Under the pieces are notes generated by a model, which made no database searches, was not told where the DNA came from, and saw only the letters and a program-made list of their open reading frames with translations. Source: Candidatus Tepidifontimicrobium thermophilum (GTDB lineage Bacteria; Sysuimicrobiota; Sysuimicrobiia; Sysuimicrobiales; Sysuimicrobiaceae). From it: a stretch of DNA of 64,000 nucleotides. Positions 5,393-48,148 of this stretch are shown one piece after another; within the stretch, counting starts at the first letter, position 1, and every line of letters begins with the position of its first letter. The position numbers and the translations under genes are program-made. The stretch lies in assembly GCA_031459915.1 (NCBI GenBank), contig JAVKHO010000001.1, positions 120,840 through 184,839 of the forward strand. The letters are read 5' to 3'.

Positions 5393-5440
5393 TAGGCAAC
5401 TTCAGTGCCAGGATACGGACAAAACTCGGGAGGGAGCTTG

Positions 5441-5998
5441 GTGAAGCGGGACGAGGCTTACGCCCTGGTGTGCGAGTGGATCGGGAACCCGAACCTGCGC
5501 AAGCACCTTCTGGCGGTGGAGGCCTGCATGCGGGCGTACGCGCGCCGGTTCGGGGCTGACGAGGACGAGTGGGGGACCGTAGGCCTGCTGCACGACCTCG
5601 ACTACGAGCGCTACCCCTACGCGGGACCGGGCGGACACCCCTTCGTGGGCGTGGAGGAGCTGCGCCGGCGCGGGGTGCCCGAGCACTGGTGCAGGGCGAT
5701 CCTCTCCCACGCGGACTACAGCGGGGTGCCGCGCCAGACCCCCATGGAGAAGGCGCTGTTCGCGTGCGACGAGATCACGGGGTTCGTGGTGGCAGTAGCC
5801 CTGGTGAAGGGCCGGTCCCTCCGGAACGTGGACGTGGAGTCTGTCAAGCGCAAGATGAAGGACAAAGCGTTCGCGCGGGCGGTGAGTCGGGAAGACTTGG
5901 TGCGGGGCGCGGAGGAGCTGGGGGTACCCTTCGAGGACCACGTGAGCACCGTGCTGGAGGCCATGCGGGGCGTCGGGGAGGCCCTGGAGCTTGCTTAG
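5441..5998 (+). CDS. HD-domain metal-dependent phosphohydrolase.
   Basis: HD motif GTVGLLHDLDYERY with a downstream histidine-rich region. GTG start with a GGGAGG ribosome-binding site. The six-frame ORF opens at 5405. Confidence 0.65.
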   Translation: MKRDEAYALVCEWIGNPNLRKHLLAVEACMRAYARRFGADEDEWGTVGLLHDLDYERYPYAGPGGHPFVGVEELRRRGVPEHWCRAILSHADYSGVPRQTPMEKALFACDEITGFVVAVALVKGRSLRNVDVESVKRKMKDKAFARAVSREDLVRGAEELGVPFEDHVSTVLEAMRGVGEALELA

Positions 5999-9898: not shown

Positions 9899-11468
9899 CG
9901 AGGTGCTGGACCGGCTGAGGGAGGCCGCGGCCGAGCTGGGAAGGCTGCTGGAGGCCCTGCCGGACGGGCTTCTGCGGGAGCCCCTGGAGCGGTGGACCCC
10001 GCTGGACGTGGCCGCACACCTCGTGGGCTGGAACCACCACGTGGCCCGTGGCCTCCAACAGTTGGTCCGGGGGCAGGCGCCCTCCTACCTCCCCCAGGCC
10101 CAGCAGGACTACGCGGAGCTGAACGCGGAGTCGGTGGCGCGGTGGGGCGGACTGGACCGGCGCGCGCTTCTGGCCGAGCTAGAGGCCTCTCTGGCGGAGC
10201 TGCTGGCGTTTTTGACCTCGCTAGCCCCGGAGCTGTGGGACCGGGACTTCGGGGTCCGACACCGGGACCGGCCCGTGACCGTGCTGCGGACTGCTGGCGC
10301 GCTGGCGCAGGACTACGTCTCGCACACGGAGCGGTTGCGGGCGTGGGCGGCGCGGCGCGGGGTCGAAGTTCCGCGGCAGCGGCTGCTCCGTACGGCCCTG
10401 TACCGACGGCACGTGCAGCTCGGGGCGCGCATGGTGCCGTTCGCGGGCTGGGAGATGCCTGTGCAGTACGGGGGGATCGTGGCGGAACACCGCGCAGTCC
10501 GGACCGCGGCAGGGCTGTTCGACGTCTCCCACATGGGCGAGGTCCGCATCTGGGGGCCCGGCGCGCTTTCGACCCTCGACCGACTGTTGTGCAACGATCC
10601 CCGGCGGCTTGCAGTGGGCCAGGCCCTGTACACGCCCATGTGCGGCCCGAACGGCGGGGTGCTGGACGACCTGGTGGTGTGTCGGCTGGGCGAGGACCGG
10701 TACCTGCTGGTGGTGAACGCCAGCCGGCGGGAGCAGGACAGCCAGTGGGTACGGGACCACGCGCGGGACTGCCGCGTCCGGGACGTCTCCTTCTTCACCT
10801 CACTGGTGGCGCTGCAGGGCCCGAGGGCCCAGGAGCTGCTGCAGCGCCTCACCGAGTTCGACCTGTCCAGCCTGCCGCGCTTCCGCCTGACGCCGCCAAT
10901 CGGGGTGGCCGGGGTCCGGGCTGTGGTGTCGCGGACCGGGTATACGGGCGAGGACGGTTTCGAAATCCTCACGGACTGGCTCGACGCCCTTCCGGTGTGG
11001 GACGCCCTGGTGGACCTGGGGGCAACCCCCTGCGGGCTGGGCGCCCGCGACACCCTGCGGCTGGAGGCGGGCTACCTGCTGTACGGCCAGGACATGGATG
11101 AGTCCACCACGCCGCTGGAGGCCGGGCTGGGCTGGACCGTGAAGCTGGAGGGCCGGGAGTTCGTGGGCGCCGACGCCCTGCGCCGGCAGAAAGCCGAGGG
11201 GGTGCGGCGGCGTCTGTGCGGGCTCGTGCTGGAGGGGAGGGCCATTGCGCGGTCGGGCTGCGCGGTCCTCCGGGACGGGGAGGTGGTCGGGCGGGTGACC
11301 AGCGGCACGTTCGGCCCGTGGGTGCAGCGCAGCATCGCCCTCGCCTACCTCCCCGCGGAGCTGGCTGCGGCCGGCACGCGGGTGGAGGTGGAGGTGAGGG
11401 GCCAGCGGGTCGGCGCAGAGGTGGCCAGCCTGCCCTTTTACCGGAGGGCTTCGGGCGGTGGGATATAG
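9888..11468 (+). CDS. gcvT: DinB/YfiT-like (MDMPI N-terminal type) domain fused in-frame to the glycine cleavage T protein (aminomethyltransferase).
   Basis: The first 155 aa or so carry a DinB_2-like signature (WTPLDVAAHLVGWNHHV). The remaining 365 aa or so are a typical GcvT (LYRRHVQLGARMVPFAGWEMPVQYGG ...). There is no stop codon and no canonical start between the two parts. AGGAGG then GTG at 9888. Confidence 0.7.
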   Translation: MDRDEVLDRLREAAAELGRLLEALPDGLLREPLERWTPLDVAAHLVGWNHHVARGLQQLVRGQAPSYLPQAQQDYAELNAESVARWGGLDRRALLAELEASLAELLAFLTSLAPELWDRDFGVRHRDRPVTVLRTAGALAQDYVSHTERLRAWAARRGVEVPRQRLLRTALYRRHVQLGARMVPFAGWEMPVQYGGIVAEHRAVRTAAGLFDVSHMGEVRIWGPGALSTLDRLLCNDPRRLAVGQALYTPMCGPNGGVLDDLVVCRLGEDRYLLVVNASRREQDSQWVRDHARDCRVRDVSFFTSLVALQGPRAQELLQRLTEFDLSSLPRFRLTPPIGVAGVRAVVSRTGYTGEDGFEILTDWLDALPVWDALVDLGATPCGLGARDTLRLEAGYLLYGQDMDESTTPLEAGLGWTVKLEGREFVGADALRRQKAEGVRRRLCGLVLEGRAIARSGCAVLRDGEVVGRVTSGTFGPWVQRSIALAYLPAELAAAGTRVEVEVRGQRVGAEVASLPFYRRASGGGI

Positions 11469-11507
11469 TGGGGCTGTCGGGCGGAAGTTGCAGGGAGGGA
11501 GGCAGAC

Positions 11508-11888
11508 GTGTATCCGGAGGACTACCGCTACAGCACCGAGCACGAGTGGGCGAAGAGAGAGAACGGCAGGGTGCGGGTGGGGATCACCCGGTTTGCCGCA
11601 GACCGGCTCACGGACGTGGTGTACGTGGAGCTGCCCCAGGTGGGCTCGGAGGTGCGTTTCATGCAGCCCTTCGGGGTGGTGGAGTCTGTGAAGGCGGCCA
11701 GCGAGCTGTACGCGCCGGTCTCCGGGCGGGTGGTGGAGGTCAACGAGCGGCTGCGGGACCACCCCGAGCTGGTGAACGAGGACCCCCACGGCGAGGGGTG
11801 GATGATCGTGGTGGAAGCCACCGACCCCTCCGAGCTGGACCGGCTCATGGACGCCCAGGCGTACCGCCAGCACATCGGGGAGGCTTAG
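11508..11888 (+). CDS. gcvH: Glycine cleavage system H protein.
   Basis: Lipoyl-lysine motif ESVKAAS and the usual 126 aa. Good ribosome-binding site. Confidence 0.9.
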   Translation: MYPEDYRYSTEHEWAKRENGRVRVGITRFAADRLTDVVYVELPQVGSEVRFMQPFGVVESVKAASELYAPVSGRVVEVNERLRDHPELVNEDPHGEGWMIVVEATDPSELDRLMDAQAYRQHIGEA

Positions 11889-13262
11889 GTGCGCTACATT
11901 CCCACGACCCCGGAAGAGCGCGAGTACATGCTGCGGCTGATCGGCGTCCGCTCCGTGGAGGACCTGTTCGCGGACGTCCCCGACAGCGTCCGGCTGCGCC
12001 GGCCCCTGCGCCTGCGGCCCGCCCTCAGCGACCCGGAGGTGCTCCGGTACCTGGGTGCCCTGGCGAACCGGAACGCGCACGCGGACCGCCTGACCTGCTT
12101 TGTGGGCGCGGGGGCCTACGACCACTTCGTGCCGCCCGCGGTGTGGCAGCTGGTCGGCCGGGGCGAGTTCCTGACCGCTTACACCCCCTACCAGGCCGAG
12201 ATCATGCAGGGCGAGCTGCAGGCGACCTATGAGTACCAGACCATGGTGTGCGAGCTGCTGGGGATGGAGGTCGCGAACGCCTCCATGTACGACGGGGCCT
12301 CCGCCCTCGGCGAAGCCGCGGTGATGGCGCGGGACCTCACGAAACGGGACCGGGTGGTGGTGAGCCGGGCGGTCCACCCGGAGTACCGGCAGGTGCTGCG
12401 CACGTACACCGAGCCGCTGGGGATCCGGGTGGTGGAGCTGCCGCACGAGGCAGGCACCACGCCGCCGGGCCCGCGGGAGCTGAACGGGCGTACCGCGGCC
12501 GTGGTGGTCCAGCACCCCAACTTCTTCGGCTGCCTGGAGGACGTGCGCGGCTGGGCGGAGGCCGCGCACGGGGCGGGCGCTCTCCTGGTGGTGGCCTGCT
12601 CAGACCCCCTGGCGTTTGGCCTGCTGGAGCCGCCGGGAGCTCTCGGGGCGGACATCATCGCCGCGGAGGGCCAGCCGCTGGGGAACCCGTTGAACTTCGG
12701 CGGTCCGTACCTGGGGATCATTGCCACCCGGCAGGAGTTCGTGCGGCGCATGCCGGGGCGTCTGGTGGGCGCCACCGTGGACCGTCACGGCCGCCGGGGC
12801 TTTGTGCTGACCCTCCAGACCCGCGAGCAGCACATCCGGCGGGAAAAGGCCACCAGCAACATCTGCACCAACGAGGCCCTCAACGCGCTGGCGGCGGCGG
12901 TGTACCTGAGCCTGCTGGGCCCTCAGGGGGTCCGGCAGGTGGCGGAGCTGTGCCTGCGCAAGGCGGACTACTTGAAGTCCCGGGTGGCGGAGCTGCCAGG
13001 CTTCCAGCTGCCGTTCCGCGCGCCCACATTCCACGAGTTCGTGGTGCGGACGCCCAGGCCCGCGGAGGCTCTCGTCCGGGCCCTGATCCGCGAGGGCTTC
13101 TTGGCCGGCCTGCCGCTAGGCAGGTTTTACCGGGGCATGCGGGACTGCCTGCTGGTGGCCGTCACGGAGACCCGGACCCGGGAGGAGATGGACCGGTTCG
13201 TGGAGGCCCTGGAGCGCGCCTGCCGGCGCGGGCGGCAGGCGGTGGGAGGTCGGGTGCTGTGA
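11889..13262 (+). CDS. gcvPA: Glycine dehydrogenase (decarboxylating) subunit 1.
   Basis: Typical GcvPA N-terminus ([15 protein letters not shown]); 457 aa. Confidence 0.9.
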
Positions 13263-14713
13263 GGGACTTCCCCTTGATCTTCGAGCAGAGCGTGTCGGGC
13301 CGTCGCGGGTTCGGGTTGCCGGATCCGGACGTGCCCGCCCGACCCCTGGAGGAGCTCGTCCCGCAGCAGGCCTTGCGGAGGCGCCCGCCCGCGCTCCCGG
13401 AGGTGAGCGAGCTGGACGTGGTCCGCCACTACACCCGGCTCAGCCACCGCAACTTCTCCATCGACGAGGGGTTCTACCCGCTGGGCTCCTGCACCATGAA
13501 GTACAACCCCAAGCTGCACGAGGAGGTGGCGCGGCTTCCGGGCTTTGCCCGCCTCCATCCCTACACGCCCGAGGAGCTCGCCCAGGGCGCGCTGCAGCTG
13601 CTGTGGGAACTCGGGGAGGAGCTGCGGGAGCTGGCGGGGATGGACGCGGTGACCTTCCAGCCCGCAGCCGGGGCCCACGGTGAGCTGGTGGGCCTGCTGG
13701 TGATCCGTGCCTACTTCGCTTCCCGGGGCGAGAAGCGCACCCGGGTCATCGTTCCGGACTCCGCGCACGGCACCAACCCGGCCACCGCAGCCATGGTGGG
13801 CTACGAGGTGGTCACCGTGCGGTCCGACGCCCGGGGCAATCTGGACCTGGTGGCCCTGGAGGAACACCTGGACGAGCGCACCGCGGCGGTGATGCTGACC
13901 AACCCCAACACCCTCGGGCTGTTTGAAGAGCAGGTGGACCGGATCGCGGAGCGCGTGCACGCAGCGGGCGCGCAGATGTACCTGGACGGGGCCAACTTCA
14001 ACGCCATGGTGGGGATCACCCGGCCCGGTGACCAGGGGTTCGACGTGATGCACATGAACCTGCACAAGACCTTCTCTACCCCGCACGGCGGCGGCGGTCC
14101 TGGAGCCGGGGTGGTGGCGGTGAAGTCCCACCTGGAACCCTTCCTGCCTGTCCCCGTGGTGGTCCGGGAAGGGGATCGCTACCGGCTGGACTTCGACCGG
14201 CCGCAGTCCGTGGGCCGGGTGCGGGCCTTCTACGGGAACTTCGCGAACCTCGTACGGGCGTACGCGTACCTCCGGACCGTGGGAGCCGAGGGGCTGCGGG
14301 CGGTGGCAGAACACGCGGTCCTGCACGCCAACTACCTGCGCGTCCGGCTGGCACCGTACTACGAGATCCCCTACGACCGGATCTGCAAACACGAGTTCGT
14401 AGCGTCGGGCGTACGGCAGAAGCGGAGGGACGGGGTCACCACCCGGGATATCGCCAAGCGTCTCCTGGACTACGGGTTTCACGCCCCCACCGTGTACTTC
14501 CCCTTGATCGTGGAAGAGGCCATCATGATCGAGCCCACGGAAACGGAGAGCCTGCAGACGCTGGACGCGTTCGTGGACGCCATGGTGGCCATCGACCGGG
14601 AGTGCCAGGAGGATCCGGAGAAGGTGCGCACCGCCCCCCACACCACCGCGGTAGGCCGGCTGGACGAGGTGCGGGCGGCCCGCTCCCCGGACCTCCGGTG
14701 GAAGCCTGCCTGA
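13259..14713 (+). CDS. gcvPB: Glycine dehydrogenase (decarboxylating) subunit 2.
   Basis: Typical GcvPB N-terminus ([16 protein letters not shown]). The GTG start overlaps the gcvPA stop. The longer six-frame ORF 12248..14713 is an alternate frame of gcvPA and was trimmed. Confidence 0.9.
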
Positions 14714-23725: not shown

Positions 23726-25360
23726 GTGACCCTTTCGAGCCGGCTCGTCGCGGTCACCCTGCTGGCCGTGGTCCCCGTGGCCCTGAGCCTCGGCTACACC
23801 TACCGCCGGGAGCGAGCAAGGCAGCTGGTCCTCGTGGAGGATCGGGCGCGGCGGTCCGCGGAGCTGCTCGCCGCGGACACAGCCCGTCTGCTGGAGGACG
23901 TCCGGAGGGAACTGGTGCGCCTGAGTCTGGTGGCAGCGGTGCGCGACGGCGAACCGGAGGGATGCAACCAGCGCCTCACCCGCACCGTGGCGGACGGCCA
24001 TCTGTTCGCAGGGATCCTGAGGGTCGACCGCGGGGGCCGGCCGGTCTGCGCTTCCCATCCGATGGCCGCCATGGGCTGGGCGCGACAGCCCACCAGCCGC
24101 GCGCTCGCGCGGACCGCAAGGTTCTCGGTGGGTGCGCTCGTGGAGGGAGGCAACACGTTGGGCCTCGCGGTGGCCGTGCCGGTGCCGGACGCCAGGTACC
24201 GGACGACCCTAGGCACCCTGCTGGCCGCCGTACACCCAGACCGCCTGCAGGGCCTCGTACGCGGCCGGCCGGCCGTGGTGGGGGAGACCTGGGCTGTGCT
24301 GGACCCGCGTGGGCGGGTGCTGGCTGCCTGGCCAGAAGGCGCTGCCGTTCCGGGAAGGCCGTGGGCGGTCTGGGACTGGCGCGACGGCACGTCGGACGGA
24401 GTAGCATTAGCCGGCTGGACTTCCGCTGCGGCCTTCCGGCGGACTAGGGGCCACGCGGTGGCCCACGTGGCCGTGGCGGACGGTGCGGTGGTGGCGGTGT
24501 GGGCGGTGTCCGAAGACGTGGCGTTCGCGGACCTGCGGGCCGCGGCCCGGAACAGCTGGCTGGCGCTGGGGTTTGCGGCGGTCTGCGCCGCGGTGGTGGT
24601 GTGGGCGGCGAGCCGGTGGCTGGTGCTGCGGCCCGTAGAGGCTCTCGTGCGGGCGGCGGAGCGGGTCCGCAGCGGGGACCTGGGGGCCCGTACGGGGCTG
24701 GCGTACGACGGCACCGAGCTGGGCTCCCTCGCCTCCGCCTTCGACGAGATGGTGGAAGCCCTCCGGGCGCGGGAGGCGGAGCTGGCCGCGGCCTACGACA
24801 CTACCCTGGAGGGGTGGTCCAGGGCCCTGGACCTCAGGGATCGCGAGACCCGGGGACACACCCTGCGGGTGGCAGCCCTGGCGGTGGAACTGGCCCGCGC
24901 CATGGGCGTGCCCGAGGATCAGGTGGTGCACGTGCGCCGGGGGGCCCTGTTGCACGACATCGGCAAGATGGCCATCCCCGACGAAATCCTCCACAAGCCG
25001 GGGCCCCTCACGGCGGAGGAGATGGCGGTGATGCGGCGCCACCCCCAGTACGCGTACGAGCTCCTGTGGCCCATCCGTTACCTGCGACCGGCCCTGGACA
25101 TCCCCTACTGCCACCACGAGCGGTGGGACGGTAGCGGCTACCCCCGCGGCCTGCGGGGAGAGGAGATCCCTCTGGCGGCCCGGATCTTCGCGGTGGTGGA
25201 CGTCTGGGACGCTCTTTCCAACCCTCGGCCCTACCGGCCCGCTTGGCCGCAGGACAAAGCCCGAGCCTACCTCCAGGAGCAGGCCGGACGCCAGTTCGAC
25301 CCGGAAGTGGTGGCCGCGTTTTTGCGCCTGCTGGACGGGCAAAAAGCAGAGGCAGGCTAG
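23726..25360 (+). CDS. HD-GYP domain c-di-GMP phosphodiesterase with a transmembrane/sensor region and a HAMP domain.
   Basis: N-terminal transmembrane helix, a second helix, a HAMP domain, then HD-GYP signatures (HTLRVAALAVELA ... LLHDIGK ... HHERWDGSGYPRGL). GTG start. Confidence 0.8.
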   Translation: MTLSSRLVAVTLLAVVPVALSLGYTYRRERARQLVLVEDRARRSAELLAADTARLLEDVRRELVRLSLVAAVRDGEPEGCNQRLTRTVADGHLFAGILRVDRGGRPVCASHPMAAMGWARQPTSRALARTARFSVGALVEGGNTLGLAVAVPVPDARYRTTLGTLLAAVHPDRLQGLVRGRPAVVGETWAVLDPRGRVLAAWPEGAAVPGRPWAVWDWRDGTSDGVALAGWTSAAAFRRTRGHAVAHVAVADGAVVAVWAVSEDVAFADLRAAARNSWLALGFAAVCAAVVVWAASRWLVLRPVEALVRAAERVRSGDLGARTGLAYDGTELGSLASAFDEMVEALRAREAELAAAYDTTLEGWSRALDLRDRETRGHTLRVAALAVELARAMGVPEDQVVHVRRGALLHDIGKMAIPDEILHKPGPLTAEEMAVMRRHPQYAYELLWPIRYLRPALDIPYCHHERWDGSGYPRGLRGEEIPLAARIFAVVDVWDALSNPRPYRPAWPQDKARAYLQEQAGRQFDPEVVAAFLRLLDGQKAEAG

Positions 25361-29385: not shown

Positions 29386-29668
29386 TCCGAGCGGCCGTGC
29401 ACCCGCCGTCGACGCCGCGACCGCGGCGGCCCCCGCGTACCGGCTCCGGCTAGGTGCCCCTGCGGCGCCCGGGAGGGTCTGCTTACCGTTGCTTCCTTCC
29501 GGACCTGGCGGGGTTCGCAGGTTCCCGTCGCGCAGGACCCAGCCGTCCTCACCGGGGACCGCGGACCGGACCCGTAGCCGCGCCGCCTCGGGCGGGGGTT
29601 CAGCCCCCCTGTGGCGGATCGGGGGTACAGGGAACCGCCAGCTCCCCGCCTAGCACGGCCGCGCCCCG
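29386..29668 (-). ncRNA. ffs: Signal recognition particle RNA (ffs), long Bacillus-type.
   Basis: The minus strand carries the domain IV signature CAGGUCCGGAAGGAAGCAACGG, a near-exact match to the bacterial consensus GUCCGGAAGGAAGCAGC. A 10-bp terminal helix closes the molecule (GCGGCCGUGC at the 5' end pairing with GCACGGCCGC at the 3' end). An extended -10 element (TGcTATACT) lies just upstream. It sits on the upstream side of dnaX, as in Bacillus. Confidence 0.65.
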
Positions 29669-32583: not shown

Positions 32584-32660
32584 TGGCGCGCCCGGAGGGA
32601 CTCGAACCCCCAACCTTCTGATCCGTAGTCAGATGCTCTGTCCAGTTGAGCTACGGGCGC
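32584..32660 (-). tRNA. tRNA-Arg (anticodon ACG) with encoded CCA.
   Basis: Cloverleaf folded by hand: acceptor stem GCGCCCG/CGGGCGC, D-stem GCUC/GAGC, anticodon stem UCUGA/UCAGA with loop CUACGGA, T-loop UUCGAGU, discriminator G, then CCA. Confidence 0.9.
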
Positions 32661-37607: not shown

Positions 37608-38033
37608 TTACCGGCGGCCCCCCCGACGGGAACCGCGCCGCGTGGCCCCGCGCTTCGTCGCCGGGCGGCGGGCCGTACGCCGCGGAGCCGTCTTACGGGC
37701 CGTGGCCGCCTTCCGCGCAGCCCGGCGGGGCGCGGCCTTTTTCGCCGCGGTCTTGCGCGCGGGCTTACGGGCAGGCTTTTTGGCGGCAGCCTTCCGGGCC
37801 GGCCGGGCGGCTTTCTTCGCGGGCTTGCGGGCCGCTGGCCGGCGCTTGGGTGCCGCAGGCGCGGGCGCCGCGGGTGTAGGCTCCGCAGGCGCCGGCGTCA
37901 CGGGCGCTTCCATCTCGCCGTACATGTCCTCCGCCTCCTCGTCCGTCGTCAACGACAGGTCGCCCTGTTCGTCGAACTCTTCTTCCGCAAGCTCCTCGTG
38001 GAATCCTCCTAGGCGGCGTTCCTCCATGGTCAC
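37608..38033 (-). CDS. Histone-H1-like protein with an acidic N-terminus and a C-terminal Lys/Ala/Pro-rich repeat (AKKAA/PARK-type) tail.
   Basis: Translation: MTMEERRLGGFHEELAEEEFDEQGDLSL... followed by PAARKPAKKAARPARKAAAKKPARKPARKTAAKKAAPRRAARKAA... Compare the HU C-terminal tails of Actinobacteria, AlgP and Hc1. Confidence 0.55.
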   Translation of the reverse strand: MTMEERRLGGFHEELAEEEFDEQGDLSLTTDEEAEDMYGEMEAPVTPAPAEPTPAAPAPAAPKRRPAARKPAKKAARPARKAAAKKPARKPARKTAAKKAAPRRAARKAATARKTAPRRTARRPATKRGATRRGSRRGGRR

Positions 38034-38521: not shown

Positions 38522-38988
38522 TCAGTACACGGAACTCTCCAGGTCCGGGTCGTTGGCCTGGATGGCCCGAAGGAGGCGGTCGGCCAACTGAGGGTCCAGG
38601 CGGCGGAGGATCTCATAGTGCTCCGTGGCCTTCTGGCGGTCCCCCATGGCCAGGTACGTCCGGGCCAGGTAGTCGTGGGCGGGCGCGTAGTCGGGCCGGA
38701 CGCTCAAGGCGCGGCGGTACGCCTCTACAGAGCGCGCGTAGTTACGGAGCTTGCGGTACGCGTACCCCAGGTTCGTCCACGCCTCAACGAACCGGGGGTC
38801 AAGCCGGACCGCCTGCAGATAGGCGCGGACCGCCTGGTCCCACTGCTGGCGGCGGGAGTACTCCACTCCCTGCTGGTAGAACCTCAGGGCCTCCTCGCCC
38901 ACTCCACCTCCTGGCTCTCCTGCTGGGTCTGCCCACACCACGGCTCCCAGGCAAAGGACCAAAGCCGCGGTCCAGACAAGCGTGCGCA
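38522..38988 (-). CDS. Secreted TPR-repeat protein.
   Basis: Signal peptide (MRTLVWTAALVLCLGAVVWA) followed by about three TPR repeats. Start taken at the internal Met. Confidence 0.65.
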
Positions 38989-39389
38989 TCTGGCCACCAC
39001 CTCCTCGGGCTTCGCCGTTAGGGTGGAGCGTCCGCGTCACAGTCCGGTCACATGCTTGCCACCACAGGCGCGGGACGCCCAGGCCGCCGAAAACGGCGTG
39101 GTTGGAGACCCCCGGGAGGCCCCGGAGGACGGACTGGGTCGCGAGGGCGCGGTCGAAGGGGTCACGGTGGCTGTGGTGCAGCCCCTGCCAAGGTGGTGTA
39201 CGGGAGGAGCTGGGAAGATCCGTGGCCCGGAGCCTACGTAAGCGAGGGCGCAGGCACCGCCCGCTCGTTCAGCGGGCCGCTGATGCAGTCACGACCTCTC
39301 GGGCTCAGCTTCTGGGGCTCGGCCAGAGCCCACAAGAGGACGGGCACGGGCTCGGCTCAGGGGAGCAGAGGTCAAATCCATAGAGCCAA

Positions 39390-40487
39390 TCAGGCTAAGC
39401 CTCGGATCCGCAGCCTCAGGTCGTTGGGCGAGTCCGCGTGCCGCAGCGCCTCCTCGACGGTCACGAGCCCGCGCTGGACCAGCTCGTACAGAGCTTGGTC
39501 GAAGGTTTGCATCCCTTCCTGGGCGCCTGCCTGGATGGCCTGCTTGACGGCGCCCACGTCGCCCCTCCGCACCAGCTCCCGGATCCTGGGGGTGGCCACC
39601 AGGACCTCCAGCGCGGCCACCCGACCGTTCCCGTCAGCCCGGGGGACCAGCCGCTGGGAGACGATGCCCTCCAGGGTGATGGACAGCCTGTGCAGGATCT
39701 CCTGGGTGTGGTCGGGCGGGAAGAAGGCCAGCAGCCGTTCCAGCGCCTGGGCCGCGTTCATGGTGTGCAGGGTGCTGAGCACCAGGTGACCGGTCTCCGC
39801 AAAGTACAGGGCCGCGTCCGCGGACTCCCGATCCCGCATCTCCCCGATGAGGAGGACGTCCGGCGCCTGCCGGAGCGCGGCACGCAGGGCGTGGTGGAAG
39901 GAAGGGGTGTCCGTGGCCACTTCCCGCTGGCTGACGAGGCTGCGCTTGTCGGGGTGCAGGAACTCGATGGGGTCCTCGATGGTCACGATGTGGCCGTCCT
40001 CGTGGGTGTTCCGGTGGTCGATCATGGCCGCCAGGGTGGTGGACTTTCCGGAGCCCGTGGGGCCTGTGACCAGTACCAGCCCCCGCCTGCGCAGGACCAG
40101 GTCCTTCAGGACCTCCGGAAGCCCTAGGTCTTCGAAGGACGGGATGTCCGTGCGGACCCTTCGCGCCACGAGGGCTAAGGTCCCCCGCTGCCGGTACACG
40201 TTGACCCGGAACCGGCCCACGCCGGGCAGGCTGTACGCCAAGTCCACGCTGTGCTCCCGGCGCAGCTGCTCCTGCTGGTCCGCGTCCAGGATCTCCCGTA
40301 CCAGGGCTTCGACCGCCGCGGGGCTGACCTTGGGGACCTCCAGGGGCTGCAGCCGGCCGTGGACCCGGTACGCGGGCGGGGACCCCACCTTCACGTAAAG
40401 GTCGCTGGCGTCCCGCTCGCCCATGCCCCGCAGCAGGTCCGCAGCCCGGAGTTCGGTAGGGGCCGCCGCGCTCACGGCGTGCCCCAC
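39390..40487 (-). CDS. Type IV pilus retraction ATPase paralogue (PilT/PilU family).
   Basis: Walker A motif GPTGSGKSTT and the PilT family region (IEDPIEF ... HHA); 365 aa. The start overlaps pilT by 16 nt. Confidence 0.8.
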   Translation of the reverse strand: MGHAVSAAAPTELRAADLLRGMGERDASDLYVKVGSPPAYRVHGRLQPLEVPKVSPAAVEALVREILDADQQEQLRREHSVDLAYSLPGVGRFRVNVYRQRGTLALVARRVRTDIPSFEDLGLPEVLKDLVLRRRGLVLVTGPTGSGKSTTLAAMIDHRNTHEDGHIVTIEDPIEFLHPDKRSLVSQREVATDTPSFHHALRAALRQAPDVLLIGEMRDRESADAALYFAETGHLVLSTLHTMNAAQALERLLAFFPPDHTQEILHRLSITLEGIVSQRLVPRADGNGRVAALEVLVATPRIRELVRRGDVGAVKQAIQAGAQEGMQTFDQALYELVQRGLVTVEEALRHADSPNDLRLRIRGLA

Positions 40488-41566
40488 GCGGAGGCCAAAG
40501 CCGCGGTGGGTGCTTCCCGGGCGAAGGCGTGCTTGTCCACGGCCCAGCGGTAGGCCACCTCCGCGGTGATCCGGCCCGTCTTCAGCAGGTGTCGCAGGCT
40601 CTGGTCCAGGCTCTGCATCCCGTCCTTCAGCCCCGTCTGGATGGCGGAGGGGATCTGGTGGACCTTGTTCTCCCGGATCAGGTTGCGGATGGCGGGGGTG
40701 GCCACCATGACCTCCACCGCAGGCACGCGGCCGGTGCCGTCCGCGGTGGGCAGCAGGAGCTGCGCGACCACGCCCACCAGGGACTCGGCCAGCTGCACCC
40801 GTACCTGCTCCTGCTGGTGGCTGGGGAACACGTCGATGATGCGGTTGACGGTCTGCGCGGCGCCGCTGGTGTGCAGGGTACTCAGCACCAGGTGGCCCGT
40901 CTCCGCCGCGGTCAGGGCCAGGGCAATGGTCTCCAGATCCCGCATCTCTCCCACCAGGATCACGTCCGGGTCCTCTCGCAGGGCGGACCGCAGGGCCGCG
41001 GCGAAGGACCGGGCGTGCACGCCCACTTCCCGCTGGTTGACGACGCTGCGCTTGTGCGCGTGCACGAACTCGATGGGGTCCTCCAGGGTGATGATGTGGG
41101 CAGTACGGCGCTCGTTGATGAGGTCCACCATGGCCGCCAGGGTGGTGGATTTCCCGGAGCCCGTCGGGCCGGTGACCACGATGAGGCCCCGGTCCCGCAG
41201 GGCTAGGTCCTCCAGCACCGGCGGCAGGCCGAGCTCCCGGATGGTCTTGATGCGCGAGGGGATGAGGCGGAACACCGCCCCCTCGCCCAGCCGCTGGAGG
41301 AACACGTTGACCCGGAACCGCCCGAGGTTCGCGAGCTCCACCGAGAAGTCCAGGTCCAGGTGTTCCTCAAAGCGGGCCTTCTGGGCGTCCGTGAGGATGT
41401 CGTACACCATGGCGTGAACGTCTTCCCGGGAGAGGGAGGGCCAGCCCTCCACGTCCACCAGCTCGCCGTTCACGCGGAGCTTGGGCGGTACTCCCACGGT
41501 GAGGTGAAGGTCGGACGCGCCCTTCTGCTTTGCCAGGATCAGCAGTTCCGTGATGTCCAAGGTCAT
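40472..41566 (-). CDS. pilT: Twitching motility ATPase PilT.
   Basis: Canonical PilT N-terminus (LAKQKGASDLHL) and Walker A GPTGSGKSTT; 364 aa. Confidence 0.85.
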   Translation of the reverse strand: MTLDITELLILAKQKGASDLHLTVGVPPKLRVNGELVDVEGWPSLSREDVHAMVYDILTDAQKARFEEHLDLDFSVELANLGRFRVNVFLQRLGEGAVFRLIPSRIKTIRELGLPPVLEDLALRDRGLIVVTGPTGSGKSTTLAAMVDLINERRTAHIITLEDPIEFVHAHKRSVVNQREVGVHARSFAAALRSALREDPDVILVGEMRDLETIALALTAAETGHLVLSTLHTSGAAQTVNRIIDVFPSHQQEQVRVQLAESLVGVVAQLLLPTADGTGRVPAVEVMVATPAIRNLIRENKVHQIPSAIQTGLKDGMQSLDQSLRHLLKTGRITAEVAYRWAVDKHAFAREAPTAALASAWGTP

Positions 41567-43002
41567 CCCTCCAGGACCGGTACGAGGAACTCAGGGGCTG
41601 CCCGCAGCTGCTCCACGAGGCGGCGGGCGGAGGCCTCCAGGGGCACCCCTTGTCCCTGGGCGGGGTCCCACTCGTACGCCACCGCCTGGTCGGAAAAGCC
41701 CGTGTACCGGCAACTGTCGCAGCCCCCGGGAGAAGCCCACCGCGCGGGGACCTTCGGGGTCGGCCACGCCGGTGGGGTGTGGTGCACCGTGGCGCACCGG
41801 CACAGGGCCGGCACGGGCACGGCGGCCAGGACCCCGCGAACGGGCACCACCACTTCCGCACCCAGAGCGGCGTGGACGTGACGGGCCCGGTAACCCGGCA
41901 GGCCCAGGACGAGCCTCTGGCCCGGCCACCACCCCAGGAGTAGCTGGCGCAAGACGCTGGGCGCCGTGCTGTCCGCCACCAGGGCGTCCGGACGCGCCTG
42001 CTGCCACAGGGGGGCGTCGGCTTCGGGGCTTTCCACCACGGCCGGGACCGGGCGAACCCCACCGGCCCCAGCCAGGACCACGATCCCGCCCCATCGGGAG
42101 GCCACCCGCGCGGCCAGGGACCGCAGCAGGCGGGCCCGCAGCCCCGCCTCCGGGCAGGCTACCGCCAGCAGCCCGCCCGCGTGCAGACCCTGGAGGGCGG
42201 AGTCCCACACCTCCGCCGGCAGGCCCACCTCGTCCTGGAGCGGGTCGGCGGGAACCGGCCTGAGGGGGCCCGCCAGCCCTGCTCCCCACCGCGTCCGCAC
42301 GAGCCGCAGCGCCGCCTCCACCGACCTGTCGGCGAGGACCACCTCAAACGCGAGCACGCCCCGGGGATCCGCGCGATCCGCGAGCGCAGCGAGGGACTCC
42401 CAAGGGACCTGGGGACCGTCCGCGGGGAACACGCCCGCTGGGGTGCGGTAGCGAACCCGCACCGCCCTCCCGGGGAGCGGCTCCACGTACACGTGGGTAG
42501 CTCCCTTCTGGGCCGCGTTGCTGAGCACGAGGCGCAAGGCCAGGTCGCCGTTCCGTGCGGGAGGTGGCGCCCCGGCCAGTGCATCCACGACCTCCCGGAT
42601 GTTGGAGGCCAGGGCCACCACGGCACAGGGCCGCATCCCCGTGAGGCGCTGGACCTCCGCCAGCACCCGGTGGTCCGTGGGGTCCGCTAGGGCCACCGCC
42701 AGCTCACCCTGCCCTGCGAGGAGCGGTAGGACCCCGAGCCGGCGCTGGGTGTCCACCGGCAGCAGCTGCAAAGCCTCCGGATCCACCATGTCGGGCCGCA
42801 GGTGTACGTAGGGCAACCCCAGCTGGGTGCTGAGGGCCCAGGCCACATCGTCCTCCGTGGCGAAGCCGAGGCGGACCAGGGCCTCGCCGAGGCGGATGCC
42901 GTGCTGCAGCTGGAAGGTCACCGCCTGCTCCAGCTGCTGAGGACTGATGACACGGGCCTGGAGGAGGATCTCCCCCAGGGGCCGGTGTCCGGTGGGTACC
43001 AC
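41563..43002 (-). CDS. PilB/GspE-like protein with an N-terminal T2SS-E N domain but an apparently degenerate ATPase core.
   Basis: GspE-N-like region (LGEILLQARVISPQQLEQAV ... VHLRPDMVDPEAL). The core shows only a vestigial P-loop (VVLAGAGGVRP) in place of GPTGSGKT. The C-terminal tetra-cysteine cluster (CRC ... C..C) is retained. Its stop overlaps the pilT start. Confidence 0.55.
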   Translation of the reverse strand: MVPTGHRPLGEILLQARVISPQQLEQAVTFQLQHGIRLGEALVRLGFATEDDVAWALSTQLGLPYVHLRPDMVDPEALQLLPVDTQRRLGVLPLLAGQGELAVALADPTDHRVLAEVQRLTGMRPCAVVALASNIREVVDALAGAPPPARNGDLALRLVLSNAAQKGATHVYVEPLPGRAVRVRYRTPAGVFPADGPQVPWESLAALADRADPRGVLAFEVVLADRSVEAALRLVRTRWGAGLAGPLRPVPADPLQDEVGLPAEVWDSALQGLHAGGLLAVACPEAGLRARLLRSLAARVASRWGGIVVLAGAGGVRPVPAVVESPEADAPLWQQARPDALVADSTAPSVLRQLLLGWWPGQRLVLGLPGYRARHVHAALGAEVVVPVRGVLAAVPVPALCRCATVHHTPPAWPTPKVPARWASPGGCDSCRYTGFSDQAVAYEWDPAQGQGVPLEASARRLVEQLRAAPEFLVPVLEG

Positions 43003-43128
43003 GGGTCAGACCTCCACGTCGCTCGCCAACGTGGGTGTAGCAAGTTCCTTGCCACCCGGGCGGCCGGCAGGGTTCTAGCGGGCCGGCGCAGGCGCAAGGC
43101 GTGTGTTCGGTAGGTGGCCTTTAGGGGT

Positions 43129-43203
43129 TGGCTCCGGCGGTAGGACTCGAACCTACAACCCCCTGGTTAACAGCCAGGTGCTCTACCATTGAGCTACGCC
43201 GGA
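43129..43203 (-). tRNA. tRNA-Asn (anticodon GUU) with encoded CCA.
   Basis: Cloverleaf folded by hand: acceptor stem UCCGGCG/CGCCGGA, anticodon stem CCUGG/CCAGG with loop CUGUUAA, T-loop UUCGAGU. Confidence 0.9.
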
Positions 43204-43277
43204 ACGCGTGGCTAGGCGCGGCCACCATCTTACGCGGGGCGCCGTGCGGTGTCAAACGGGGAACGGAGGTGAGGTGC

Positions 43278-44417
43278 GTGAGCCGGTCGGAGGTGGCGGC
43301 GAACGCCCTGGTGGCGAGCCTGGTGGTGGCGGCCACCTACGGCGTCCTGTGGTTGCTGGTCCGGATCACCGACATCCTGGTCCTGGTGCTCATCTCGGCT
43401 ATCCTCGCCTCTGGACTGGCGCCCACCGTCACCCGCCTGGAACGCACACGGGTGGGGCGCCGCAGCCTGGGCCGCGCGTGGGCCATCGGGTTGACGGTGC
43501 TGGGAGTCCTGGCGGCGGTGGGCCTGATGGTGAGCGTGCTGGTGACCCCGTTGGTCCAGCAGGCGGGGGCGTTCTTCGACCGCCTGCCGGAGTACGTACG
43601 GGAGGCGGAGGAGTGGCTGCGGCAGCTGCGGTTGCGGTATCCGTGGGTCCCCGACGCCAGCCGTTGGGTGGCTCGGCTGCCGGAGGAAGTGCAGAACTTC
43701 GCGCAGTACTTCGGTCCCGCCGCGGGCGTGTTCGGTCGGTTCGTGGGCGGGCTGTTCACCGCCACCACGGTCCTGGTGCTGGTGGTCTACATGCTCATCG
43801 AGGGGCCGCGGCTGAAGCAGGGGTTCGTGCGGCTCTTCCCACCCTCCCAGCGGCCGCTGGTGGTCCAGGTCCTGGACGGGGTCGCGGGCAAGTTCAGCGG
43901 CTGGGTTCGGGGCACTTTCCTCATGGGCTTTTCCATCTTCGTCATGGACACGGTGGGACTCATCCTCCTGGGCATGCCGTATCCCTTCGTCCTGGGGCTC
44001 GCAGCAGGCGTCGCGGAGCTCATCCCCGTGGTGGGGCCGTTTTTGGGCGCGGTACCCGCGGTGCTGGTGGCGCTGTTCCAGCCCACGTGGAAGCTGGTGG
44101 GGGTGGTGGTGCTGTTCGTACTGGCGCAGCAGATCGAGCAGAACGTGCTGGTGCCGCGGATCATGAGCCGGGCGGTGGGCCTTTCCCCCATCCTCGCCAT
44201 CTTCGCCCTGTTGGCGGGAGGGGCGTTGATGGGGCCGGTGGGTGTGCTGCTGTCGATCCCGGTGGCCGCGGCGCTGCAGGTGGTGGCCACGGAGGTGGTC
44301 CGGGTGGTGCTCCCGTACACACGGTCCGACGCCCACGTGCTGGAGGACGCCGCGGACCCCGGCCCTCTTGCGGGCGAGACCGAGGCCGGCCACGAGAGGA
44401 GCGCGGGCCGGACCTAG
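43278..44417 (+). CDS. AI-2E family transporter (PerM/YhhT, UPF0118).
   Basis: Polytopic membrane protein with the AI-2E pattern. GTG start after GGAGGTGAGG. The longer ORF was trimmed because it overlaps the tRNA. Confidence 0.75.
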   Translation: MSRSEVAANALVASLVVAATYGVLWLLVRITDILVLVLISAILASGLAPTVTRLERTRVGRRSLGRAWAIGLTVLGVLAAVGLMVSVLVTPLVQQAGAFFDRLPEYVREAEEWLRQLRLRYPWVPDASRWVARLPEEVQNFAQYFGPAAGVFGRFVGGLFTATTVLVLVVYMLIEGPRLKQGFVRLFPPSQRPLVVQVLDGVAGKFSGWVRGTFLMGFSIFVMDTVGLILLGMPYPFVLGLAAGVAELIPVVGPFLGAVPAVLVALFQPTWKLVGVVVLFVLAQQIEQNVLVPRIMSRAVGLSPILAIFALLAGGALMGPVGVLLSIPVAAALQVVATEVVRVVLPYTRSDAHVLEDAADPGPLAGETEAGHERSAGRT

Positions 44418-45511: not shown

Positions 45512-48148
45512 TCAGTCGTCCTGCAGGGCTTCCCGCACCCGGGCCGCCAGTTCGCTGATCAGGAACGGCTTCTGCAGGAAGCCCTTCGCTCCCCGGGCCA
45601 CAGCGTCGCGGGCGGCGCGCTCCTGCGTGTAGCCGCTGGTGAGCAGGATCCGGACGCGCGGGTCCAGGGCCCGCAGGGCGTCGAAGGTCTGGGTCCCGGA
45701 AAGGCCGGGCATGGTCATGTCCAGGATCACTAGGTCGATCCGGCCCGCGTGCTCCTGGTACAGGCGCAGCGCTTCCTGCCCGTCCGTCGCCACCAGCACC
45801 CGGTAGCCGCGGCGGGTCAGCACGTCCCGAAGCAGGTTGCACAGGGGCTCCTCGTCGTCCACCACCAGGATGGTCTCCCCCGCTCCTCCGTCCACCTCCG
45901 CCTCCCCCGCCTCCTCGGGTTCCGCCGCGCCGCTTGCCACCGGCAGGTACATCCGCACCGCGGTGCCCTTTCCCACTTCGCTGTCCACCTCCAGAAACCC
46001 CCCGTGGTTGCGGACGATCCCGTACACCATCGCCAGCCCGAGCCCGGTCCCCTTTCCGGGTCCCTTCGTGGTGAAGAAGGGTTCGAACATGCGGGCCTTG
46101 ACGTGCTCGTCCATCCCCACACCCGTGTCCCGCACGGTCAGGCACACGTACGGCCGCAGGACGGGCGGTTCCCCGGAGGTGGGGTCCGGTGCGATGACCG
46201 GTTGCAGGACCAGCTCGAGGACCCCGCCGTCGGGCATGGCGTCGCGGGCGTTCATGCACAGGTTGAGGACCGCCTGGTGCAGCTGGCTGGCGTCCCCCTC
46301 CACCATGGGCAGGTCGGAGGGAAAGCGCGTGCGCAGCTCGATGCGGGGGTCCAGGGTGCTGCGGAACAGCTCCGTGACCTCGGAGCACAGGCGGGCTACG
46401 TCCAGGGGACGGACCTCGAACTTGCCCCTGCGGGCGAAGCCCAGCAGCTGGCGGGTCAGCTCGGAGGCACGCAGGGCTGACCGCTCCAGGACATCAAAGT
46501 AGCGCTGCAACTCCGGGGTGCCGGGCAGTTCCTCCTTCAGCAACCCCAGGTAGCCCACGATGGTCCCGAGGATGTTGTTGAAGTCGTGGGCGATGCCCCC
46601 TGCGAGGGTACCGATACTCTCCATCTTCTGCGCCTGCAGGAGTTCCTCTTCCAGGCGCTTGTTGGCGGTGATGTCGCGGTACACACCGAGCACGCCCACC
46701 GGCCTCCCCTGAGCGTCCCGCTGGACTGAGAGGGAGGCGGACAGCCAGCTGACCTGGCCGTCCGCGGTGCGGTGCCGCAGCTCCCCGCGCCAGGTGCCGT
46801 CCCGCAGGAGGTGCTGGCGCAGGCGCGCGAGGCTGTCCCGCGCCTCGGGCTGAACCAGGGAGTCGAAGTCGCGGCCCAGGGCGTCGCTGGCCAGCCACCC
46901 GTACAGAGCCTCCGCGGCACGGTTCCAGTACACCACCCGCCCGTCCCAGTCCGTGGCCACGATGGCGTCCTGCACCTGTTCCAGCAGGCTGGCCTGGAAG
47001 TGCAGCATGTCCGCCACGCGCCGGTGCTCTGTAAGATCCCGCACGGTCCCCAGCAACATGGGTTTGCCCCGGAGGACCACCCGGTTGGCCTGTAGCTCGC
47101 ACTCCAGCCGGCTTCCGTCGGGGCGGAGGCCCACGAAGCCCACTGCCTCCCCCGGGGAAGGGGAAGCGAGCCGTTCCCGCAGGTAGTTGGCCAGCTTGGG
47201 GCGGTCCTCGGGCGCGCACAACGCCAGGGGGCCGAGCCGGTCCACGCACTCCGCGGACGTGGTCCGGAACATCTGCAGGAACCGGCGGTTGACGAACCGG
47301 AACAGCCCGTCCTCCAAGAGGAACACCCCGTCGGGTGACTCCTCGATGAGGGTGCGGTAGCGCGCTTCCGACTCCCGCAGCTCCTCTTCCAGGCGCCGCT
47401 GCTCGGTGATGTCCAGGGCGGTGGCCAGCACGAACTGGAGGCGTCCCTGGGGGTCACGTATGGGTGCCAGCAGCACCTCCAGGGTCCTGGAAGGGGGGCC
47501 TGGGCGGCGGGCGTCGGGCGGCGGCCACGGGAAGTTCTGCAGCCTGACCGCCTGCCCCCGCAGCGCGTCTTGCAGGGCGCTACGGTGCTGGGGGCCGAAC
47601 ACCGAGCCACCCCGGAGTGCGTTGGGCGGCTCCCCCGACGGGGGCGGCCCTTGGCCGAACAGGTCTACCCAGGCGCGGTTGGTGGCGATGACCCGGCCGT
47701 CCAGGTCGAGCGCCTGTGCAGGCAGGGGGAAGTCGTGCAGGGCCTGTCGGACGTGGGAAGCCAGTTCCCGCCCTCCCACCGCCCCCGGCGGCGTGATGGA
47801 CCAAACCACGGACCGGCCCGCGGCCTCGGCGCGGGCGGACGCTTGGACGACGCTCCCGTCAGCGCGGCGGAGGCTCAACTCCCCGGTCCACCGCTTGCGC
47901 CGCCGCGACTCCTCTAGCACGTGGAGGGCCTCCGCAGAGCCGTCCGTGAGCGCCCGGAACGGCAGGCCCACTACGGATCCTGGCCCGAGACCTACCAGGT
48001 CGGCCGCGGCGCGGTTGGCGGCCACCACCACGCCGTGCTCGTCCACCTCCAGCACCGCGTCTGAGACGGCCCGCAGCACCGCCGCCAGGCGCTCGGAGGC
48101 TTCCGCCGCCCTGGGGTCGTCAACGTGGGTTTTCCGCCGCCAGAACAT
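45512..48148 (-). CDS. Hybrid sensor histidine kinase with multiple PAS domains, HisKA, HATPase_c and a C-terminal receiver domain.
   Basis: Repeated PAS segments, an H-box (HDFNNILG), an ATPase G-box (GTGLGLAMV), then a receiver domain (ILVVDDEEPL ... DLVILDMTMPG). Confidence 0.8.
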   Translation of the reverse strand: MFWRRKTHVDDPRAAEASERLAAVLRAVSDAVLEVDEHGVVVAANRAAADLVGLGPGSVVGLPFRALTDGSAEALHVLEESRRRKRWTGELSLRRADGSVVQASARAEAAGRSVVWSITPPGAVGGRELASHVRQALHDFPLPAQALDLDGRVIATNRAWVDLFGQGPPPSGEPPNALRGGSVFGPQHRSALQDALRGQAVRLQNFPWPPPDARRPGPPSRTLEVLLAPIRDPQGRLQFVLATALDITEQRRLEEELRESEARYRTLIEESPDGVFLLEDGLFRFVNRRFLQMFRTTSAECVDRLGPLALCAPEDRPKLANYLRERLASPSPGEAVGFVGLRPDGSRLECELQANRVVLRGKPMLLGTVRDLTEHRRVADMLHFQASLLEQVQDAIVATDWDGRVVYWNRAAEALYGWLASDALGRDFDSLVQPEARDSLARLRQHLLRDGTWRGELRHRTADGQVSWLSASLSVQRDAQGRPVGVLGVYRDITANKRLEEELLQAQKMESIGTLAGGIAHDFNNILGTIVGYLGLLKEELPGTPELQRYFDVLERSALRASELTRQLLGFARRGKFEVRPLDVARLCSEVTELFRSTLDPRIELRTRFPSDLPMVEGDASQLHQAVLNLCMNARDAMPDGGVLELVLQPVIAPDPTSGEPPVLRPYVCLTVRDTGVGMDEHVKARMFEPFFTTKGPGKGTGLGLAMVYGIVRNHGGFLEVDSEVGKGTAVRMYLPVASGAAEPEEAGEAEVDGGAGETILVVDDEEPLCNLLRDVLTRRGYRVLVATDGQEALRLYQEHAGRIDLVILDMTMPGLSGTQTFDALRALDPRVRILLTSGYTQERAARDAVARGAKGFLQKPFLISELAARVREALQDD

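Follow-up and report, generated by a model that had tools for sequence, protein, structure and literature searches.

What can a PilB-like protein without recognisable ATPase motifs do at the head of an operon of pilT genes? The question is raised by three co-directional minus-strand open reading frames (ORFs) that span 39390-43002 of a 64-kb stretch of DNA (the window) from Candidatus Tepidifontimicrobium thermophilum (contig JAVKHO010000001.1 of assembly GCA_031459915.1). The first, here called pilB*, encodes a PilB-derived protein, and the other two, pilT1 and pilT2, encode PilT-family proteins. Motor switching between extension and retraction in type IV pili is still unresolved, and the known inputs of cyclic di-GMP (c-di-GMP) act on active PilB/MshE or through FimX/PilZ-type adaptors. 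Following up a sequence-only reading of this locus, we describe PilB* as probably an undescribed signal-controlled regulator of pilus retraction.

Results

A predicted pseudo-ATPase with the PilB/GspE fold

As judged from alignments and a structural model, PilB* is a true pseudo-ATPase that preserves the PilB/GspE fold without any of its catalytic motifs. Motif positions were taken from two independent alignments, one made with MAFFT against genuine PilBs and the other a hidden Markov model alignment of the family profile to Thermus thermophilus PilF, and the two agree on every position. All four catalytic motifs (Table 1) are replaced in every family member aligned; the canonical His box, GHLVxSTLHTNDA, aligns with the PilB* segment GQRLVLGLPGYRA. 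The sequence-only reading had taken VVLAGAGGVRP (residues 308-318) for the Walker A box. Both alignments place that stretch at the Asp box, EDPxEY, and we reject it as a Walker A relic, the true P-loop position being V281-ACPEAGLRAR-291. The same reading had found the remaining ATPase motifs unrecognisable, and here it was right: Asp box, Walker B and His box are all lost. Pfam does not match T2SSE (PF00437) to PilB* even at E<=0.1, with MshEN the sole domain found, and the protein falls below the NCBIfam ATPase cutoffs for TIGR02538 (PilB, 51.6 bits against 675) and TIGR02533 (14 against 630).

Structure prediction, a check proposed in the sequence-only reading, gave a confident AlphaFold model (predicted local distance difference test score 90.5; predicted template modelling score 0.84). 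Its best Foldseek matches are GspE (4pht, 2.8e-17) and PilB (5tsh, 1e-15, template modelling scores 0.53/0.65), at 13-16% identity. A single-sequence search of the PDB reached the MshEN part alone, and the family profile was needed for the ATPase core; that profile matches the cores of EpsE/GspE (1p9r, 7e-9, residues 158-453) and PilF at 7e-9 to 6e-7. AlphaFold, Foldseek and the profile all find in PilB* the three-domain N1-N2D-CTD fold of PilB/GspE ATPases (CTD, C-terminal domain). The C-terminal tetra-Cys motif claimed from sequence is also there (C401-x-C403 ... C428-x-x-C431). Its four Cys residues align with the CxxC...CxxC of PilF and PilB, with altered spacing in the first pair, and C401, C428 and C431 are invariant in both pilB* subfamilies described below.

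An essentially intact MshEN domain with a predicted c-di-GMP pocket

The GspE N-terminal domain is retained, as the sequence-only reading had stated, and its MshEN motif, which that reading wished to see aligned, is essentially intact. PF05157 matches residues 61-144 (62.4 bits against a cutoff of 23.1; 4e-17), the score for the NCBIfam model NF053729 'c-di-GMP_motif' is 59.6 bits (cutoff 38), and the N-terminus matches PilF (6f8l, 2.9e-32) and MshE (5htl, 6e-14) in PDB sequence searches. The published MshEN motif consists of two 24-residue repeats with 5 residues between them (PMC5013675, Wang et al. 2016; PMC11731258). PilB* carries motif I as P8-LGEILLQARVISPQQLEQAVTFQ31 and motif II as R37-LGEALVRLGFATEDDVAWALSTQ60, with a spacer of 5 residues. 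Scored against a relaxed form of the motif ([RKPN]hGxxhhxx[GAS]hhxxxxhxxxhxx[Q..], two copies, 5-residue spacer), it agrees at 47/48 constrained positions, the sole miss being R17 at motif I position 10. A Pro at the start of a motif has a precedent in P335 of the PilF GSPII-C domain (PMC11731258).

Nine motif residues (L9, G10, L13, R37, G39, L42, G46, W55 and L57) are invariant over 28-100% identity in both subfamilies; W55, in motif II, is a clade-specific Trp. An invariant A-D107-P-T-D110 lies in the region that matches the guanine-contacting Asp of MshEN_C (Asp108 in VcMshE), a correspondence at the level of the region. Because 47/48 motif positions agree and the key residues are invariant, c-di-GMP binding by PilB* is likely.

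Translational overlap with a canonical pilT and a second PilT-family gene

The sequence-only reading described ATGA coupling of the first gene to a canonical PilT and a second PilT/PilU paralogue, and this is borne out: the ATGA shared by the pilB* stop and pilT1 start is read directly from the sequence, and both downstream proteins pass TIGR01420 (cutoff 319; scores in Table 1). The pilT1/pilT2 overlap is GTGA if the alternative start at 40475 is used, or 16 nt with the start at 40487. PilT1 has intact motifs throughout (GPTGSGKS, TLEDPIE, PDVILVGEMRD, TGHLVLSTLHT and AIRNLIRE). PilT2 is 49% identical to PilT1 and keeps Walker A, Asp box, Walker B and His box; it carries RIRELVRR in place of AIRNLIRE, which is present in PilT1 only, and is therefore a PilU-like or divergent paralogue.

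Upstream, on the same strand as the operon, lies a tRNA-Asn gene that is also found before pilB* in five other loci (L005, L007, L009, L011 and L012). It is preceded by a sigma-70-like promoter match, one of which was observed upstream of the tRNA against 0.1 expected from shuffled sequences. This site may drive tRNA-Asn and read through into the pilB* operon; no terminator-like site was found between the promoter match and 38900. No riboswitch or other Rfam element was found upstream of the operon, tRNA-Asn being the sole Rfam match.

Conservation and purifying selection

An identical PilB* protein occurs on at least 23 contigs labelled 'Armatimonadota bacterium', and four further GTDB species, including Candidatus Sysuimicrobium calidum, have orthologues at 86, 69, 61 and 41% identity, which places the lineage in Sysuimicrobiota/CSP1-3. 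The ORF is intact in all orthologous loci fetched (5 GTDB species representatives), each with an intact triad. Against the 86% orthologue, the ratio of nonsynonymous to synonymous substitution rates (dN/dS) is 0.30 for pilB* as a whole, 0.26 for MshEN, 0.20 for N2D (the lowest) and 0.42 for the CTD; pilT1 and pilT2 give 0.07 and 0.10 against the same locus. Invariant columns number 53 in the closer family and cluster in MshEN motif II and near the zinc motif. A frameshifted pseudogene of a normal pilB, which the sequence-only reading had named as one of the outcomes that would overturn it, is rejected on the intact orthologous ORFs and a dN/dS of 0.2-0.4.

In three assemblies of one population of metagenome-assembled genomes (MAGs), pilB* is annotated as two adjacent ORFs of 221 and 280 residues (P0335/P0338, QN142_06905/QN142_06900); the cause is an assembly frameshift or else a genuine break of the gene in this population. 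Taxonomic labels vary: one 90%-identity PilB* cluster is labelled Armatimonadota, Firmicutes/Bacillota or 'bacterium' at NCBI. The 41% orthologue, with the same synteny, sits in Candidatus Sysuimicrobium calidum (Sysuimicrobiota/CSP1-3), and the NCBI phylum labels of these MAGs look unreliable.

A family of Walker-A-less PilB paralogues that travels with pilT

The C-terminal profile, searched against 1.84 billion representative proteins, returned only 5 tight clusters, followed by a long T2SSE tail in which many proteins have no Walker A. A second pilB* subfamily, at 28-45% identity to the window protein, has two derived features in common with it, the motif II signature EDD[VIL]AWALSxQLGxPYV and a P-loop replaced by [VI][GA][CST]x[DE][PS]xxR. 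Its loci (L013, L016 and L018) lie in unrelated neighbourhoods, yet the order is again pilB*-pilT-pilT. The link between pilB* and PilT genes is conserved to ~28% identity and across differing neighbourhoods.

A wider metagenome scan, drawn with family-derived patterns, gave at least 342 relatives, of which 80 loci were kept; after shortened and redundant genes had been dropped, Walker A was intact in 19 loci and absent in 51. An immediately downstream pilT was found in 15/19 Walker-A-intact and 45/51 Walker-A-less loci, the six Walker-A-less exceptions being mostly truncated contigs. Counts of pilC and tandem pilT were restricted to loci with an adjacent pilT and at least 1.4 kb beyond the last pilT. 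Here pilC was present in 9/9 intact loci, all in the order pilT-pilC, and in 0/30 of those without Walker A, whereas two tandem pilT genes were found in 0/9 and 21/30, respectively. The contrast between intact and absent gives a Fisher p of ~5e-9, for loci that are phylogenetically non-independent.

Five Walker-A-less sub-groups can be named by their P-loop relics: VACPEAGLRAR, IGCADPLVRST, VHGPPRSGGSL, VCGPRRSGCST and VSSPGKSDITR. Trp stands at MshEN motif II position 19 (..WAL[SGA]..) in all of these sub-groups and in almost all the other aligned loci that lack Walker A, L061 being one exception; the Walker-A-intact PilBs of the sample do not have it. Together these features point to one old clade of dead PilB paralogues partnered with PilT, not PilC.

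Some relatives carry an N-terminal receiver domain (REC). The REC-fused members in L017, L032, L037 and L038 stand directly behind a REC-HD-GYP gene with HD, HHE and GYP motifs; this phosphodiesterase gene is co-oriented with, and overlaps, pilB*. In L017 it is itself behind a dCache hybrid kinase. Real PilB genes adjoin the clade in two loci: in L015 the clade member is directly preceded by an intact pilB C-terminus and followed by pilT, and in L039 a real PilB core lies divergently upstream.

Other features of these loci were recorded. The VCGPRRSGCST sub-group (L047, 4075-9847; L058, 10745-13555) has pilB*-pilT followed by large Ser/Thr kinases, some with PA14 domains. In metagenome locus L019 (55-5386), two Walker-A-intact pilB genes in tandem precede pilT and pilC, and a pilin gene comes later; a dead paralogue could plausibly have arisen from such an arrangement by tandem duplication. 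At 12223-12768 of the REC-fused locus L017, a ParE/Phd toxin-antitoxin pair lies between pilT2 and a tRNA-Asn/AI-2E pair.

The surroundings of the operon in the window

The sequence-only reading had noted no pilC, pilM-Q or pilin genes nearby, and our wider scan agrees: among ~60 ORFs across the 64 kb we found no T2SSF/PilC, PilM/N/O, secretin or N_methyl pilin, nor a prepilin G[FY]TLxE motif in any frame of the window. The same reading had drawn on a nearby concentration of c-di-GMP enzymes. Such enzymes are indeed in the window, namely two GGDEF diguanylate cyclases with intact GGDEF and RxxD I-site motifs (4148-5392 and 5999-7297) and a membrane HAMP-HD-GYP protein (23726-25360, +) with HD, HHE and GYP motifs, likely a c-di-GMP phosphodiesterase. 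They lie 16-37 kb from pilB*, and a specific association in this lineage did not emerge; what they show is that the organism uses c-di-GMP. The two cyclases flank a small HD-domain protein (5405-5998; cluster 4148-7297).

An intact PilB/GspE C-terminus (P0250, locus L020) is found at the end of a contig in GCA_031459625.1, a related MAG of the same study. This MAG shares the RNaseH-like/RecR/YbaB/DnaX/Rce1 synteny of the window, and its RecR and IsoDH are each 73% identical. Relatives therefore have a genuine assembly-type ATPase, although P0250 is not placed in a MAG that carries pilB*.

Two neighbours of the operon were considered as partners and set aside. The AI-2E-family transporter gene adjoins the triad in the window, L005, L007 and L017 and is absent from L016 and L018; in the distant L017 the AI-2E/tRNA-Asn pair is next to the triad but on its other side. 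Because this pair is retained while the triad is rearranged, shared ancestry explains the adjacency better, and we reject the transporter as a functional partner. As an ORF of 429 residues (43128-44417, +) it starts inside the complement of tRNA-Asn, and its N-terminus, MAPAVGLEPTTPWLTARCSTIELRRN, is translated tRNA; the real gene encodes ~379 residues, as annotated in MAGs. A small TPR protein with a signal-peptide-like N-terminus (38522-39040, -), directly downstream of pilT2, was dropped as a pilotin-like partner: it is kept in close relatives only (absent from L005 and L012) and is apparently frameshifted in L009.

A multi-PAS hybrid histidine kinase with a receiver (878 residues; 45512-48148, -) occupies the same position in orthologous loci down to 40% PilB* identity (L005 and L007) and could be an upstream input or plain synteny. 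At 37608-38033 (-) lies a 141-residue protein with an acidic N-terminus, a Lys/Ala/Arg/Pro-rich, histone-H1-like tail and no Pfam match. Further away, gcvT-gcvH-gcvPA-gcvPB stand in a row (10320-14713, +); these glycine cleavage / reductive glycine genes fit the reductive glycine pathway reported for Sysuimicrobiota (PMC11604079). The window also encodes a bacterial large signal recognition particle RNA (159 bits; 29395-29658, -) and tRNA-Arg(ACG) (32584-32660, -).

Table 1. Features of the pilB* operon and its upstream region, in window coordinates
Feature	Position	Strand	Basis and remarks
pilB* (putative PilB-derived pseudo-ATPase, 479 residues)	41563..43002	-	GTG start; GGAGG Shine-Dalgarno 8 nt upstream
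MshEN (GSPII/N1) domain, residues 1-145	42568..43002	-	Pfam PF05157 (4e-17), PDB sequence matches
Predicted 53-residue c-di-GMP-binding unit	42823..42981	-	NF053729 and published motif
N2D-like domain, residues 150-262	42217..42555	-	Relics of ASDIHxEP (ATHVYVEP) and RVRYR motifs
Degenerate ATPase C-terminal domain, residues 263-479	41566..42216	-	Profile and Foldseek matches
Walker A relic VACPEAGLRAR, residues 281-291	42130..42162	-	Canonical GPTGSGK[ST]; Lys and Thr replaced by Leu and Arg; acidic residue in loop
Asp-box position VVLAGAGGV, residues 308-316	42055..42081	-	Alignments; LAGAGGV at EDPxEY
Walker B relic RPDALVADSTAP	41959..41994	-	Canonical DPDxxxVGExRD; catalytic Glu gone
His-box relic PGQRLVLGLPGYRA	41884..41925	-	Both His residues gone
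Four-Cys zinc motif C401-R-C403 ... C428-DS-C431	41710..41802	-	Conserved WP...P.RW loop between Cys pairs
pilT1 (canonical PilT, 364 residues)	40472..41566	-	TIGR01420, 496 bits; ATGA overlap with pilB*
pilT2 (PilT/PilU-family paralogue)	39390..40487	-	365 residues, or 361 from GTG at 40475; TIGR01420, 463 bits
tRNA-Asn(GTT)	43129..43203	-	Rfam tRNA, 75.8 bits; 126 nt upstream of pilB*, same strand
Sigma-70-like promoter match TTGACA-17-TAAGAT	43227..43255	-	~24 nt upstream of tRNA-Asn; consensus match only

Discussion

We propose, with somewhat better than even confidence, that pilB* is a maintained, catalytically dead PilB paralogue whose product acts as a c-di-GMP-responsive pseudo-ATPase that regulates PilT or gates retraction against extension. 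PilB* keeps the two-motif MshEN pocket, the N2D and CTD fold that serves ring packing in this ATPase family, and the four-Cys module; it appears to have lost every residue needed to bind or hydrolyse ATP. Binding of c-di-GMP to MshEN would change how the dead N2D-CTD body engages its partners. These could be the PilT1/PilT2 rings co-expressed with it, or else the site where PilB/PilT dock at the base of a pilus machine whose genes lie elsewhere. Receiver phosphorylation may add a second input in some relatives. The outcome would be retraction gated against extension without consumption of ATP. There is a precedent in Myxococcus xanthus, where a Walker A mutant PilB still signals to exopolysaccharide (EPS) production (PMC11656802).

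Several observations weigh against this role. The window shows no pilus machinery, and a search with a real PilB fragment, which matched mostly short metagenome fragments and one related MAG (P0250/L020), did not place a real PilB in the same genome. The ancestral operon likewise has pilB beside pilT, and the two genes could therefore be neighbours by inheritance alone, with no functional tie. Selection on pilB* is purifying but relaxed, with a dN/dS 3-4 times that of the PilTs. Motif I position 10 is Arg in the sub-clade of the window, against the expected Gly/Ala/Ser, and this could weaken binding; Gly, Asn or Ser takes its place in more distant members of the family. All clade members found come from uncultured organisms.

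Other explanations fit part of the same evidence. PilB* might act as a permanently nucleotide-free PilB that reports c-di-GMP to an output unrelated to PilT, such as EPS or biofilm formation, its place before pilT being a leftover of a pilB-pilT-pilC operon. The ancestral adjacency, seen in Walker-A-intact loci, would allow this, as would M. xanthus PilB, which regulates EPS independently of pilus assembly and whose Walker A mutants up-regulate EPS (PMC11656802). We consider such an output unlikely: the pairing with pilT and the start/stop overlaps survive in at least five divergent sub-groups with unrelated neighbourhoods, and pilC is always lost and pilT often duplicated, where a neutral leftover would be expected to break up. 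PilB* could also be a decoy that competes with a real PilB, the dead protein holding the docking site on the PilM/PilC platform at given c-di-GMP levels and so blocking extension. PilB* still has the N1 (MshEN) and N2D regions, with which GspE/PilB contact platform proteins, the GspE-GspL complex 4pht is its top fold match, and a real pilB is immediately upstream in L015 and divergently upstream in L039. In most loci pilB* accompanies pilT and not pilB or pilC, which a decoy would leave unexplained, and we find this role quite unlikely.

The same two loci, together with the intact PilB/GspE C-terminus (P0250, L020) in the related MAG with the same local synteny, speak against a self-contained motor in which PilB* would dock to the platform and sense the signal while the PilT paralogues hydrolyse all the ATP, perhaps for both extension and retraction, with no canonical PilB. 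That no real pilB was found in the window would suit such a motor, and bifunctional or PilT-assisted extension is reported for MSHA pili (PMC9815625), but we hold the arrangement to be very improbable. Least credible, and given hardly any weight, is the idea that a normal pilB is decaying into a pseudogene or has been misannotated. The loss of all catalytic motifs and the two ORFs annotated in the QN142 MAGs might suggest this. Set against them are a 479-residue ORF intact in at least 23 contigs and in orthologues down to ~40% identity, a dN/dS of 0.2-0.4, 53 invariant columns that include the c-di-GMP motif and Cys residues, and a confident AlphaFold model; the conservation data therefore rule out a decaying relic. 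A regulator of PilT, or of the choice between retraction and extension, remains our preferred reading of pilB*.

More tentatively, and with real doubt, we suggest that the Trp-bearing, Walker-A-less PilBs as a whole might be widespread, undescribed 'motor-mimic' regulators: a c-di-GMP-gated clutch, in some cases linked to phosphorylation or to Ser/Thr kinases, that would bind the PilT ring or docking site and time the switch between extension and retraction. MshEN, the PilB fold and PilT are familiar; the module of a dead motor plus a retraction motor, and its signature, do not seem to have been described before. The degenerate core is covered by none of the curated Pfam or NCBIfam models, and full-text literature searches turned up no account of a PilB paralogue that lacks Walker motifs and is linked to PilT, although absence from the searchable literature is no proof. 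Papers on Sysuimicrobiota and CSP1-3, with their supplements, contain nothing on pili or c-di-GMP.

If our proposal is true, a dead extension motor with a c-di-GMP sensor would give retraction a kind of input not known before, and the secretion-ATPase superfamily a clear example of how a pseudoenzyme evolves. Automated pipelines now call such proteins 'PilB/GspE' or 'hypothetical', and a simple rule separates pilB* from real PilB: a Trp in motif II, a P-loop without Lys, pilT next and no pilC. Being from hot springs, the proteins are likely thermostable and suited to biochemistry and cryo-electron microscopy.

Comparison with known systems

Among the closest counterparts of PilB*, Vibrio cholerae MshE (PDB 5HTL) has the same succession of an MshEN domain with two 24-residue motifs 5 apart, N2D, a T2SSE-fold CTD and a four-Cys motif. 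MshE, however, hydrolyses ATP, is stimulated by c-di-GMP and has its gene in a pilus operon, whereas PilB* has lost all ATPase motifs, carries the clade-specific Trp in motif II and is coupled to pilT genes without pilC. T. thermophilus PilF (6F8L, 5OIU and 6EJF) is the best PDB sequence match (2.9e-32; by profile 2.3e-57, residues 6-451) and likewise combines GSPII/MshEN domains, c-di-GMP-binding in PilF and including the Pro-started motif at P335, with a zinc tetracysteine. PilF carries three GSPII domains, and its ATPase core is functional and needed for piliation; PilB* has one GSPII domain and a core that appears dead. In M. xanthus PilB, too, MshEN binds c-di-GMP, and the nucleotide-free or Walker A mutant form signals to EPS regulation (PMC11656802), but that protein is an active motor that moonlights, whereas PilB* is a separate paralogue in which catalysis seems permanently lost.

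On the retraction side, PilU resembles PilT2 as a second PilT-family paralogue encoded directly after pilT (PMC6762196). It is a catalytically active, PilT-dependent accessory retraction ATPase and leaves a dead PilB upstream unexplained. The FimX-PilZ-PilB complexes of Pseudomonas and Xanthomonas offer another likeness, c-di-GMP control of a pilus motor through a degenerate, inactive receptor domain. FimX is a degenerate GGDEF-EAL protein acting on PilB, whereas PilB* derives from the motor itself by degeneration and is linked to PilT genetically. A further likeness is found in archaea, where ArlH (FlaH), a poorly or non-hydrolysing ATPase-fold partner, modulates ArlI, a motor of the PilT/VirB11 superfamily. 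ArlH differs in being KaiC/RecA-like, in still binding ATP, in having no c-di-GMP domain and in being unrelated in sequence to PilB*.

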